Positions 39,871-43,140 of a DNA stretch of 50,912 nt are shown piece after piece; position 1 is the first letter of the stretch, and each line of letters starts with the position of its first letter. The DNA comes from Elusimicrobiota bacterium (lineage in GTDB: Bacteria; Elusimicrobiota; Elusimicrobia; UBA1565). The position numbers were made by a program, and so were the translations under genes. The DNA lies in assembly GCA_043827405.1 (NCBI GenBank), contig JBDRPD010000033.1, forward strand, positions 1-50,912. The letters run 5' to 3'. The notes under the pieces are model-generated. The model was not told the origin of the DNA. It saw nothing but the letters and a program-made list of their open reading frames with translations, and searched no databases.

Positions 39871-41739
39871 ATGCGCGAGAGGCTTGAGCTGACGGTCCGG
39901 GCGGTGGTCCTGGGCGTCGTATTGTCGGTCGTAATGGCGGCGGCGAACGTCTATCTGGGCCTCAAGGCCGGAATGACGGTGTCGGCGTCCATCCCCGCGG
40001 CCGTGATGGCGATGGGCATCCTGCGCTTTTTCCGGCCTCGCGGCACGATCTACGAAAGCAACCTGGTGCAGACCAGCGCCTCGGCGGGCGAGTCGTTGGC
40101 CGCCGGCATCATCTTCACCATGCCGGCATTGGTGATCGCGGGCGTCTGGCAGACCTTCAACTTTTGGACCACCTCTCTGATCGCCCTGACCGGAGGGCTG
40201 CTGGGCATCCTGTTCATGATTCCCATGCGCAAGGTCTTCGTAGTGGACTCCAAGGAGCTGGCCTTTCCTGAAGGGCTCGCCTGCGCCGAGGTCCTCCGCT
40301 CCGGCGAGCAGGGCAATGAGACGGGGGCGGCGCTGGTTTTCCGCTCGATCCTGGTGGGCGGCCTGTTCAAGCTCCTGGGCTCTTTCGCGGGGCTGCTCAA
40401 GGGGTCCCTCGAGGCGGCGAAGATTCTCGGTTCCCGGGTGTTCTTCTTCGGCAGCGATGTCTCTCCGGCGCTGGTGGCCGTGGGCTATATCGTCGAGCTG
40501 CCGATCGCCGTGCTCATCTTTCTCGGCGGCGCCGGGGCCTGGCTCGTGGGCATCCCGCTGCTCGGGGGAGCGGAGGGCGATCCTATCGAGTCGGCCTGGA
40601 ACCTGTGGAGCACCCAGATCCGCTATATCGGCGTCGGCGCCATGGTGGTGGGCGGCATCGACTCGATCTACAAGGTCCGCAACGGCCTGCGGCTCGCGGT
40701 TAAGGAGATGAGCGGGCACCTGCGCGGCCGCACCAAGGAGGTGCCGGAGACCGAGCGCAATCTCGCGGGCAGCACCATTATGATTTTGGGCGGCATTACC
40801 ATCGCGATGATCCTGGCCATCTACTACCACCTTACGGGCGATGTCGGCGAGACCATAGTCACCGGCATCGCGATGATCGTGCTGTCGTTTTTCTTCACCG
40901 CGGTCGCAAGCTATATCGTGGGCTTGGTCGGCAACTCCAACAGCCCCGTCTCGGGCATGACCATTACCGCCGTCCTGGCCACGGCGGGGCTGCTTTACGT
41001 TATGGGCTATACCGGGGTAAAGGGGATGCTGGCGACCCTTGGTGTCGCGGGCGTGGTTTGCTGCGTGGCCTGCACTTCGGGCGACGTCTGCAACGACCTG
41101 AAGACCGGCGCGCTGATCGGGGCCTCGCCGCGCAGCCAGCAGATTATGCAGATCGTCGGCGTGGTTTTCGCCGCCTTCATTCTGGCGCCCGTTCTGATCG
41201 CCATGCATGAGGGCTCGCTGCGCATGGGGGGGACCGGGATCGGCGGCAAGGACTATCCCGCCCCGCAGGCCAACCTTTTCGCCAGCCTGGCCAAGGGCTT
41301 TTTCGGCGAGGGGTCCCTGCCTTGGGGCATGATCGTGGTGGGCGTGATCGTCGGCCTGCTCATTCTGGTCGCGGACTGGATGCTGAAAGGGCGGCGCTCC
41401 GGCTTCCGCCTGCACCTCATGCCGGTCGCGGTCGGCATCTACCTGCCGTTCGGGCTTTCGGTGCCCATTCTCCTGGGCGGTATTTTGGCGCACCTGGTGG
41501 GCCGGGATTCCGGCGCCGCCGAAAAAACCAAGAACCTGCAGCGGGGCGTGCTGGTCTCATCGGGCATCATCGCCGGCGAGTCGCTTATCGGCGTGGCCCT
41601 GGCGATTCTCGCCTACTTCGGGATCGGCGGACTGGGGTTGGGCAAGAGCCTGTCTTCCGGCACGCTCGACATCTTCTCGGTTTGCGCCATGGTTCTGATC
41701 TGCTGGATGTTCTACAGCTGGTCGTTTAAGAAGCGCTGA
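39871..41739 (+). CDS. OPT family oligopeptide/metal-chelate transporter
   Basis: ELTVRA, NVYLGLKAGMTVSASIPAAV, FPEG, SNSPVSG, NDLKTG, APQA, SGIIAGES; many TM helices. Confidence 0.93.
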   Translation: MRERLELTVRAVVLGVVLSVVMAAANVYLGLKAGMTVSASIPAAVMAMGILRFFRPRGTIYESNLVQTSASAGESLAAGIIFTMPALVIAGVWQTFNFWTTSLIALTGGLLGILFMIPMRKVFVVDSKELAFPEGLACAEVLRSGEQGNETGAALVFRSILVGGLFKLLGSFAGLLKGSLEAAKILGSRVFFFGSDVSPALVAVGYIVELPIAVLIFLGGAGAWLVGIPLLGGAEGDPIESAWNLWSTQIRYIGVGAMVVGGIDSIYKVRNGLRLAVKEMSGHLRGRTKEVPETERNLAGSTIMILGGITIAMILAIYYHLTGDVGETIVTGIAMIVLSFFFTAVASYIVGLVGNSNSPVSGMTITAVLATAGLLYVMGYTGVKGMLATLGVAGVVCCVACTSGDVCNDLKTGALIGASPRSQQIMQIVGVVFAAFILAPVLIAMHEGSLRMGGTGIGGKDYPAPQANLFASLAKGFFGEGSLPWGMIVVGVIVGLLILVADWMLKGRRSGFRLHLMPVAVGIYLPFGLSVPILLGGILAHLVGRDSGAAEKTKNLQRGVLVSSGIIAGESLIGVALAILAYFGIGGLGLGKSLSSGTLDIFSVCAMVLICWMFYSWSFKKR

Positions 41740-42637: not shown

Positions 42638-42750
42638 TTGACCCAGATCAATAGTTTCCATCAACGGCGATAATCAACTTTTTCCGTTGCCTGCGGTCAT
42701 ATGGTCCTAGACGGCGGCTGGGTACAATAGCATTAGAAGATTTTTAGGAG
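42638..42750 (+). promoter_or_regulatory. Upstream region of the repeat-peptide gene: FNR/CRP-like box, -10 and SD
   Basis: TTGAC-CCAG-ATCAA (42638-42651); TACAAT (42723-42728) without a good -35; AGGAG (42746-42750). Confidence 0.45.
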
Positions 42751-42758
42751 TCAATGAA

Positions 42759-43079
42759 ATGATCGAGATTCTGATGCTACTGAGCCTGAGCGGACTGAAC
42801 AGCCAGCCGACCATGATCGCCGGTTTTCAGCCCTGCGTTTACCCCAATCCCTGCGGCGTGACTCTGGAAGAGACGACGACCGTCGCCCAGTACCGCCCCT
42901 GCGTATGGCCCAACCCCTGCAGCGAGCAGGAAGAGCCGGTCCAGGTCGCCCAGTACCGCCCCTGCGTATGGCCCAACCCCTGCAGCCAGAACGAGCCGGT
43001 GCAGGTGGCTCAGTTCAAGCCCTGCGTATGGCCCAACCCCTGCGGCGTCGTCGGACGCGAGGAGTCGCGCCTCATATAA
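42759..43079 (+). CDS. Small protein with hydrophobic N-terminus and four tandem PCV(W/Y)PNPC repeats (putative peptide precursor)
   Basis: SD 8 nt upstream; cores AGFQPCVYPNPCG, AQYRPCVWPNPCS twice and AQFKPCVWPNPCG; synonymous differences between copies; terminator downstream. Confidence 0.8.
   Translation: MIEILMLLSLSGLNSQPTMIAGFQPCVYPNPCGVTLEETTTVAQYRPCVWPNPCSEQEEPVQVAQYRPCVWPNPCSQNEPVQVAQFKPCVWPNPCGVVGREESRLI
42831..43043 (+). repeat. Four in-frame imperfect tandem repeats with a 24-nt core CCCTGCGTATGGCCCAACCCCTGC
   Basis: Cores start at 42831, 42897, 42960 and 43020 (periods 66, 63, 60 nt); cores 2-4 are identical. Confidence 0.92.
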
Positions 43080-43108: not shown

Positions 43109-43140
43109 AAAAAAGCCCCCAACCACCCCTGGGGGCTTTT
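43109..43140. terminator. Bidirectional intrinsic terminator
   Basis: Stem AAAAGCCCCCA / TGGGGGCTTTT with an 8-nt loop, between convergent genes. Confidence 0.85.

Follow-up and report, generated by a model that had tools for sequence, protein, structure and literature searches.

Precursors in which a signal peptide is followed by several near-identical units with spacers are familiar from yeast alpha-factor and other Kex2-processed peptides. Among bacteria, the RRNPP systems (Phr, PapR, NprX, AimP/arbitrium) export a small propeptide of 10-100 aa through Sec, derive a short peptide from it and encode an adjacent cytoplasmic TPR receptor of 250-500 aa; intragenic duplication and phage copies occur, and exported-propeptide signalling and its capture by phages are known almost only from Gram-positive bacteria (PMC10075063). 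WprA, the closest described multi-unit W-P-X precursor, carries three W-P-R motifs with an 18-residue period that are cross-linked by WprB, and needs the adjacent WprB and WprC (PMC11851443); uniform protease cutting is described for the same WprA/WprB/WprC system (PMC11851443, PMC12957482). Bufferins and oxazolins are small, signal-peptide-bearing Cys peptides that bind copper (PMC12452194).

The four-unit gene analyzed here, from an Elusimicrobiota genome, resembles each of these systems in part. It encodes a small protein (106 aa, in a family of 36-143 aa) that would resemble RRNPP propeptides if it is exported by Sec and converted to short peptides, and intragenic duplication and phage copies occur here too; unlike them, it belongs to a diderm phylum rather than Firmicutes, has a two-Cys loop of 12-15 residues, a core that is conserved across families rather than diversified and an FNR-type promoter, no cytoplasmic TPR receptor gene adjoins it, and the TPR gene near its relatives has a signal-like start and lies one or two genes away. 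The several W-P-X motifs, their period of about 18 residues and a putatively uniform protease cutting recall the Wpr system, whereas most motifs here are W-P-N inside a Cys pair, the leader is of export type, and no radical SAM, chaperone or S9 protease gene stands alongside. In contrast to triceptide and Wpr systems generally, there is neither an adjacent radical SAM (SPASM or twitch) maturase gene nor a shared leader for a maturase or RRE, one-unit genes having unrelated signal peptides before the core. Bufferins and oxazolins differ in that copies here have no MNIO or partner gene beside them, the genome itself encodes none, and their Pfam/NCBIfam models do not match. If the reading favoured below holds, the multi-unit layout would be of the alpha-factor type, but bacterial, with a disulfide loop and with dibasic sites in only 18 of 260 spacers.

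A four-unit precursor gene

The window, that is the whole stretch of DNA analyzed (50,912 nt), is the complete contig C33 (JBDRPD010000033.1) of a genome with 63% GC. The precursor gene and its surroundings comprise the following features:

39871-41739, + strand: OPT-family transporter gene, syntenic neighbour and possible importer (Pfam)
42746-42750, + strand: Shine-Dalgarno sequence AGGAG, 8 nt 5' of the ATG (sequence)
42759-43079, + strand: four-unit precursor gene, 106 aa (ORF call, translation, family matches)
42759-42821, + strand: leader, aa 1-21, a putative export signal with a short hydrophobic stretch at aa 2-11 and without a basic n-region (judged by eye)
42822-42854, + strand: unit 1 (G22-C32), the Tyr variant, without N-terminal Gln (translation)
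42888-42920, + strand: unit 2 (Q44-C54), preceded by Val-Ala (translation)
42951-42983, + strand: unit 3 (Q65-C75), identical with unit 2 over 42 nt of DNA (sequence comparison)
43011-43043, + strand: unit 4 (Q85-C95) (translation)
43111-43140, no strand assigned: terminator-like hairpin, probably common to the convergent MerR-family gene (folding)

An initial annotation of this ORF, made from the sequence, had reported four in-frame cores, and both translation and shuffling agree: PCV(Y/W)PNPC begins at 42831, 42897, 42960 and 43020, giving in-frame periods of 66, 63 and 60 nt, and the motif did not occur in 200 shuffled windows read in six frames. The gene's repeat is the top-scoring tandem repeat of the window, and GC3 of the ORF is 0.84. 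Over the 8 residues of the core, two synonymous changes and the W/Y exchange set unit 1 apart from units 2-4, a pattern that had been taken as a sign of selection on the peptide. These differences are real, but because the core DNA of units 2-4 is identical, the gene alone says little on selection; the evidence comes instead from codons across the family (see below).

The gene had also been credited with its own -10, Shine-Dalgarno sequence and terminator. TACAAT, AGGAG and an 11-pair hairpin are present (-19.0 kcal/mol, z -4.18 on the + strand, with a short U run; z -2.70 on the - strand for the 71-nt stretch at the hairpin), although a consensus scan called neither a promoter (no -35) nor a terminator for the precursor gene. 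An out-of-frame mini-ORF, ATG-AAA-TGA at 42754-42762, overlaps the start codon; in two relatives its bases stand in frame as an MK extension. Contigs from three RNA runs of the same study neither cover the gene nor show this organism, and are thus uninformative on its expression.

By Pfam, the genes upstream encode an OPT transporter, a receiver protein and a PAS-like protein, and the other neighbour is the convergent MerR-family gene; as first noted, no modifying enzyme adjoins the precursor gene. Two other genera also have an OPT gene near a family copy, directly upstream in one and at 0.6 kb in the second. OPT as peptide importer was considered and set aside as non-discriminating, since 39 of 41 genomes contain OPT with or without the peptide. 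The description "stand-alone" is apt for this copy only: the genome holds two further family genes (three units on C50, one unit on C81) and a longer one-unit protein, and the family's home locus lies directly behind an FNR-type regulator gene.

A repeat-peptide family of related Elusimicrobiota

The family search covered 1.84 billion cluster representatives (50% clusters) and gave 153 matches at E <= 0.001, 150 of them listed; of 154 proteins collected, the 150 shorter than 200 aa were kept and four long matches were dropped as chance. Together these 150 proteins hold 391 C-x2-P-x2-C units, one to five per protein and mostly two to four, with the consensus (V/T/L)-A-Q-(F/V/I)-x-(P/T/I)-C-V-W-P-N-x-C. 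Each unit has two invariant Cys, and Cys count is even in 146 of the 150 proteins; Pro occupies position +3 in 391 of 399 C-x5-C intervals, and Trp position +2 in 84%. Among internal units, 155 of 260 have A-Q at -5/-4, as do 81 of the 150 first units, and an Ala lies within -7 to -4 in 354 of 410. The aromatic-P-N triad occurs in 288 of 410 units (aromatic-P-other in 97, non-aromatic in 25), and W-P-R in 9%. Units recur every 16-23 aa in 224 of 260 cases, one precursor can mix three recurring unit subtypes, and His and Met account for 0.6% and 0.4% of mature residues.

Spacers are short and rich in A/V/E/P/K, with double-Gly sites in 16 of 260. Their acidity, emphasized in the initial annotation, holds for the four-unit gene but is not a family trait, because only 86 of 260 are net negative (111 neutral, 63 positive). 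Leaders lack K/R within residues 2-5 in 129 of 149 relatives and have it in 20; judged by eye, the signal peptide is canonical in phage copies and about 20 of the 149 relatives, and atypical in the 106-aa protein. Synonymous differences under shared residues affect 27% of codons between genes and 20% within them (190 units, 61 genes). Furthermore, variable spacers keep the frame, and signal-like leaders, Shine-Dalgarno or leaderless starts, stops and terminators are retained across the family. Because synonymous variation lies under fixed residues, selection acts on the family's protein, and the repeat is conserved at that level across the 190 units.

No match to the family was found in Pfam, NCBIfam or PHROG, and the best PDB match has E 0.068; the two scorpion peptides behind the PDB matches (E 0.068 and 0.18) were discarded as Cys-spacing noise. 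AlphaFold2 predicted no stable fold for the precursor (pLDDT 44.7; a second pLDDT value obtained was 0.21), and ESM Atlas gave no usable match. Neither curated models nor fold prediction thus assign the repeat to a characterized structural repeat family, EGF-like or other. A search for longer homologues returned a single match, which proved to be a family member with a wrongly called frame upstream, and one for shorter homologues returned nothing; the longer one-unit proteins described below came from the genomes themselves. CVYPNP is reminiscent of the YPNP start of T9SS-type sorting domains, and the leader of a pilin N-terminus; both likenesses were put aside, given that Pro follows Asn in 13% of units and Glu3 is present in 44% of leaders. 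The literature searched, mostly open papers, holds no description of the family. The peptide family is real and, on this search, undescribed, with a candidate regulator and putative phage mimics, which supports the original view of an unrecognized group of C-x5-C repeat peptides, likely exported and without an adjacent maturase. In L421, L425, L469, P0107 and P0114, a different Cys-pair unit is inserted between the usual cores, partly in phage-like contexts.

Pattern and profile searches across genomes and MAGs, as the initial annotation had proposed, located the family in related Elusimicrobiota and in viral and metagenome contigs. Among 41 genomes in the search of relatives, 31 match, with up to five matches per genome. 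In a phylum sample, all matches fall in four related Elusimicrobiota families (three of the same order, one of the same class): 40 of their 60 genomes carry the peptide family, against 0 of 340 others. Named loci (n = 21) comprise 19 from Elusimicrobia/Elusimicrobiota, one "bacterium" and one weak Peptococcaceae match, and a GTDB pattern scan (22 of 64 parts) gave 120 loci, 15 of them multi-unit; 11 of the 12 multi-unit loci with titles are Elusimicrobia. On this evidence, the peptide family does not extend beyond a single group of uncultured bacteria from groundwater and the viruses that infect them. One family-bearing record belongs to lineage IV, and since oxygen and nitrate respiration are described for that lineage (bioRxiv 10.1101/765248), this host is read as facultative.

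An FNR-type box array and its linked regulator

Class II promoters of E. coli FNR contain a TTGAY-N4-RTCAA box centred at -41.5, the site position in 19 of 23 directly activated promoters (PMC3688515). The region before the precursor gene resembles this arrangement and includes:

42638-42651, + strand: symmetric FNR-type box TTGAC-N4-ATCAA, centre -90.5 from the predicted start (sequence)
42651-42677, + strand: two abutting degenerate boxes with a 13-nt period, centres -77.5 and -64.5, only the ATCAA halves intact (sequence)
42687-42700, + strand: proximal asymmetric box TTGCC-N4-GTCAT, centre -41.5, the class II position; its last T would be base one of the -35 hexamer (family consensus)
42703-42709, + strand: GGTCCTA, a second recurring motif and possible site of another regulator (enrichment, weak)
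42723-42728, + strand: -10 hexamer TACAAT, with predicted start at 42735 (conserved hexamer)

A symmetric FNR-type box was present in all 43 distinct peptide-gene upstream regions compared (two loci left out: no upstream DNA; mis-picked start), against 36 of 3658 upstream regions of the genome itself. The proximal box has the consensus TTGAC-N4-VTCMT and lies 22-23 nt 5' of the -10 in 41 of the 43 promoters. In 12 of 43 relatives the ATG comes 6 nt after the -10, as in leaderless mRNA, and because these genes place the start, the register is fixed, with the proximal box at -41.5 and upstream boxes at -64.5, -77.5 and -90.5; relatives carry intact boxes at the -77.5 and -64.5 offsets. With the start taken from these 12 leaderless-type genes, the peptide promoters have the TTGAY-N4-RTCAA-like box at about -41.5 of FNR class II promoters. 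They differ from the E. coli type in that the proximal box is asymmetric and has between one and three further boxes upstream, spaced by 23 and 13 nt, and in that the likely regulator, a Crp/Fnr protein specific to the lineage, scores below the Fnr cut-off. TAGGNCC/GGNCCTA is weakly enriched, in 12 of 43 peptide promoters versus 198 of 3658 upstream regions of the genome.

Searched as a two-box pattern, the array gave 50 matches in 30 of 41 genomes and none in a reversed control: 31 stand before family genes, 18 before other small proteins with signal-like N-termini, and the remaining one behind a regulator gene with no ORF left. The window promoter is one base off this strict pattern. Metagenome contigs carry the proximal box with a -10 before 48 of 60 distinct genes and the symmetric box before 52, and 36 of the 53 genes not used before have both box types. 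Strict boxes number 21 in the genome, including that at 42638-42651, compared with 6 and 5 in two shuffles. Symmetric boxes of the same spacing precede dsrA in the genome, and in relatives they are found before genes for 2-oxoacid oxidoreductase, succinate dehydrogenase/fumarate reductase and PEP carboxykinase; other strict boxes of the genome precede genes that we read as pyruvate oxidoreductase and hybrid cluster protein. Because the same boxes precede dsrA, oxidoreductase and Sdh/Frd genes, the pattern fits activation at low oxygen. Transcription from this array, activation rather than repression, and oxygen as the cue are likely; alternatively, the cue may be NO or a different one, or control may lie with either of the two further Crp/Fnr proteins of the genome that have an E-x3-R helix.

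Neighbour clustering of 43 loci (duplicates included) brought out a single recurring same-strand neighbour, a Crp/Fnr gene found in 18. Its product has CxxC-x5-C, a fourth Cys and an ETTVR helix, with C11, C14, C20, C63 and E199/R203 invariant throughout the 8 sequences aligned, and thus shows the E-x3-R helix and candidate Cys Fe-S ligands of a class II regulon's Crp/Fnr protein; Fnr is its best NCBIfam match, below cut-off. The fourth Cys is presumably not at the E. coli FNR position, and of 20 orthologues at greater distance, 6 yielded no VC[TS]G motif. Orthologues are present in 55 of 60 related genomes and 6 of 340 others. All 41 peptide-bearing genomes have the regulator, with a peptide copy <=2.6 kb downstream in 36 (<=500 nt in 32); one further genome has a diverged copy behind the regulator, so that 37 of 41 have a copy there. 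Of 20 regions behind the regulator without a peptide gene, taken from 18 of the 21 genomes that lack the peptide and from two further ones, 18 contain no box and no core. The TPR gene of this home locus is retained in peptide-less genomes; a complex of its product with two units scored 0.00 (controls not folded), which counts neither for nor against binding.

Two loci with this promoter stand out. In L103 (G008:C31), a full promoter and a terminator lie behind the regulator gene with no peptide ORF, suggesting that the gene was lost or that a small RNA is made. In L110 (G038:C102), from a peptide-less genome, a two-box promoter precedes a 53-aa signal-peptide gene ending in another C-x5-C loop, a possible analogue.

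One-unit copies in phages and in longer secreted proteins

Eight distinct one-unit genes were recovered, four in five IMG/VR records and four in metagenome contigs, two of the latter among phage-type genes. Three overlapping viral scans gave 2, 17 and 14 stretches, mostly chance matches; the metagenome scan gave 63 loci, re-found two of the viral one-unit genes and included one two-unit gene beside an Acb1-like gene. INPHARED phages yielded no family match. The one-unit genes have mutually unrelated, hydrophobic, signal-like leaders ending in A-x-A (7) or S-x-A (1), directly followed by the core, e.g. QFKPCVWPNTC, and by a stop 1-4 residues after the second Cys. Phage copies sit among phage accessory genes. 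An FNR box precedes four of the eight and is missing before the other four; in two phage records (33 and 66 kb), the sole boxes stand before the peptide gene. Neither an integrase nor a TPR receptor was recognized in the 77 of 104 longer ORFs scanned in these two records. Because unrelated signal peptides directly precede the same 12-15-residue core, the free peptide appears to be the working unit, and the arrangement points to a free, exported peptide of 12-15 residues as the smallest product under selection. For the same reason, no leader is shared that a maturase could recognize.

The unit is also found in a longer setting. A secreted-type protein of 176 aa in the same genome (contig C62, L175:2936-3466) contains one unit, and orthologues of 160-210 aa occur in 13 of 16 relatives of the genome's own family and 0 of 24 others. 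In all 14, a unit follows within a few residues of a signal peptide that looks canonical, a second unit is present in two, and A-Q lies several residues ahead of the unit rather than within it; none of the 14 genes is preceded by an FNR box. Since it is kept within all 14 longer proteins, the unit is also a portable module. In this genome, the gene (L175) is convergent with a PorV/PorQ-family gene; the upstream regions of L175 and of L197-L209 carry repeated TAGGNCC motifs.

Search for a linked maturase

The initial annotation had raised the possibility of an MNIO substrate or a triceptide and had suggested an analysis of gene neighbourhood and co-occurrence; this analysis, run for MNIO, radical SAM/SPASM and peptidase genes, revealed no linked maturase. 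MNIO (PF05114) is absent from the genome, which is 98% complete, and from the scanned neighbours of family genes, and its presence elsewhere (11 of 41 genomes: 8 of 31 peptide-bearing, 3 of 10 peptide-less) is uncorrelated with the peptide, which argues against an MNIO substrate. The triceptide proposal fares no better: the aromatic-P-N triad is incomplete across units (see above), and no radical-SAM motif lies beside any copy. An ORF with CxxxCxxC was found at none of 43 genome loci bar one ferredoxin-type match five genes away, and in none of 256 metagenome neighbour ORFs, as called by a heuristic gene caller that can miss genes. Likewise, no recurring maturase, protease or exporter appeared in Pfam scans of 35, 32 and 54 neighbour representatives, the third leaving out 8 ORFs of a duplicate phage locus.

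Genome-wide, 10 of the 31 genomes with the peptide lack a SPASM domain over cut-off, and three of these 10 are 96-98% complete; a WprB-like enzyme would escape this count, because WprB has only a twitch domain. A WgkB-family protein over cut-off was found in none of five genomes, nor was glutaminyl cyclase (PF05096); DsbA-like genes are present in all five and VKOR in one. The genome has 62 radical-SAM matches, and its two PqqD loci are both parts of other clusters, of which one includes a 45-aa peptide of its own. A twitch-type enzyme may act from elsewhere.

Proposed mechanism and alternative explanations

We tentatively favour, at somewhat less than an even chance, an exported, disulfide-looped peptide that serves as a ligand or signal, is induced at low oxygen and is mimicked by phages. 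At low oxygen, the FNR-type regulator would become active and bind the box array, yielding a monocistronic message. The precursor would then be exported, the short host leader likely being used by Sec, and its Cys-x5-Cys pairs would likely be oxidized to disulfide loops by a DsbA-like enzyme. Cutting at (V/T/L)-Ala|Gln before each unit would release short peptides, likely with an N-terminal pyroglutamate; the site is proposed because internal units (155 of 260) share this junction with the signal-peptide ends of one-unit genes. Cutting at Ala|Gln alone would leave the 8-10-residue spacer as a tail on each unit, unless trimmed. Released peptides would act on a conserved envelope protein of the same bacteria, and phages would imitate them. 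Aromatic-Pro turns constrained by a disulfide are typical of epitopes that proteins read. A protein is the likely target, and because the core is fixed across four families and several phages, one conserved host target is suggested.

If this ligand reading is true, a lineage-wide, maturase-free two-Cys peptide under redox control would extend propeptide signalling to an uncultured diderm phylum, and would be a new kind of bacterial signal imitated by phages; to our knowledge, exported-propeptide signalling with phage capture is otherwise almost exclusively Gram-positive. The product as delimited by the phage copies has 12-15 residues, and can be synthesized as bait without host culture. The promoter signature also stands before further undescribed secreted proteins, which it groups into a small regulon, and it can be of help in linking phages with Elusimicrobiota hosts. 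A bolder version, which we regard as doubtful, is an oxygen-gated, disulfide-looped peptide pheromone of a diderm phylum, in which the FNR-type sensor would turn on the polyprotein precursors and the released units would announce anoxia to neighbouring cells via a receptor outside the known families; with captured single units, some under the host promoter, several unrelated phages would fake the signal.

Several observations weigh against the favoured ligand or signal. No receptor is linked, and the only conserved secreted neighbour, the TPR protein, also occurs in peptide-less genomes; kin-specific quorum peptides diversify, unlike this nearly invariant core across four families. Cleavage would have to accommodate 105 of 260 internal units without A-Q, few dibasic or double-Gly spacer sites, and a residue three before the cut that is often unsuitable for signal peptidase. 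The prevalence of host leaders without a basic n-region (129 of 149), together with the missing PF05096 and the single VKOR in five genomes, speaks against export and maturation as proposed, and the four one-unit genes without an FNR box and the two other E-x3-R Crp/Fnr proteins of the genome against FNR control, as do the position of the regulator's fourth Cys and the distant orthologues lacking VC[TS]G. The core also sits uncut-looking in all 14 longer secreted proteins, which would fit a docking module equally and is the strongest argument for that alternative. On that alternative, which we consider unlikely though still a serious contender, the precursor would be an exported, uncut, flexible chain of disulfide loops docking multivalently on an envelope structure, and the phage copy would be a monovalent competitor that, for example, blocks superinfection or an export machine. 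The placement of a unit right after the signal peptide in the longer proteins, which would use the same envelope structure, agrees with such a chain, as do the mixing of three subtypes in one precursor, the regular period and the position of phage copies among accessory genes, one beside an Acb1-like gene; the A-Q of most internal units, placed exactly as at the one-unit signal-peptide junction, does not, and in the longer proteins A-Q is no part of the unit.

Two invariant Cys per unit, one to five units per gene, up to five matches per genome and promoters that look strong would also suit a buffer of thiol or soft-metal (Cu(I), Hg, Ag) type in the periplasm, produced in large amounts at low oxygen, bufferin-like but without enzymatic modification and carried by phages as a stress gene. 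We think this somewhat less probable again, because His and Met are scarce, the conserved Q, F, V, W, P and N resemble an epitope that proteins read, the neighbours include no recurring copper or metal gene, the boxes are FNR-type, and DsbA-like oxidases are present. An enzyme-modified RiPP, with MNIO acting on Cys or a WprB-like radical SAM enzyme cross-linking W-P-N/R from elsewhere in the genome, could draw on the WprA precedent, the W-P-R units, the 62 radical-SAM matches and an anoxic induction that would suit an oxygen-sensitive enzyme. It is nevertheless improbable in light of the distribution of MNIO, SPASM and WgkB, the commitment of both PqqD loci to other clusters, the dearth of radical-SAM motifs among neighbours and the unrelated signal peptides, which leave no common maturase leader. 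Finally, the DNA identity of units 2 and 3 might indicate that the repeats are a DNA or RNA element in an untranslated ORF; synonymous variation under fixed residues in 190 units, frame-keeping spacers and the retention of leaders, starts, stops and terminators make this scarcely credible.

Other systems in the genome and its relatives

In the regions G000:C105:36000-52800 and 78400-87600 and G000:C81:47455-48651, the genome encodes dsrA over the TIGR02064 cut-off and genes read from the sequence as dsrB, dsrMKJOP, aprAB, qmoABC and sat, with FNR-type boxes before dsrA and between aprB and a SulP gene; on these genes, the genome is likely that of a sulfate-reducing Elusimicrobiota member. A separate RiPP system, the conserved cluster at L163:6584-12039 (also L164, L165, L166), comprises polyprenyl synthase, PqqD, three radical SAM proteins, UbiA and a short peptide ending in AQPYIRFT.

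TAGGNCC/GGNCCTA is enriched between genes of the genome (229 in ~0.31 Mb vs 538 in ~4 Mb of coding DNA), and its clusters before many signal-peptide genes could reflect a second global regulator. Two further secreted families have related promoters: a Pro-rich family of 155-190 aa with a conserved LFDG...LPExDL end, no NCBIfam match and the peptide's two-box promoter (L173:3657-4220, i.e. G000:C23:17656-18219; L083, L084, L094, L095, L104, L106, L108, L109), and a Cys-containing family of ~245 aa with a two-box-type promoter (G000:C91:35919-36839, L092, L093, L099, L105, L107).
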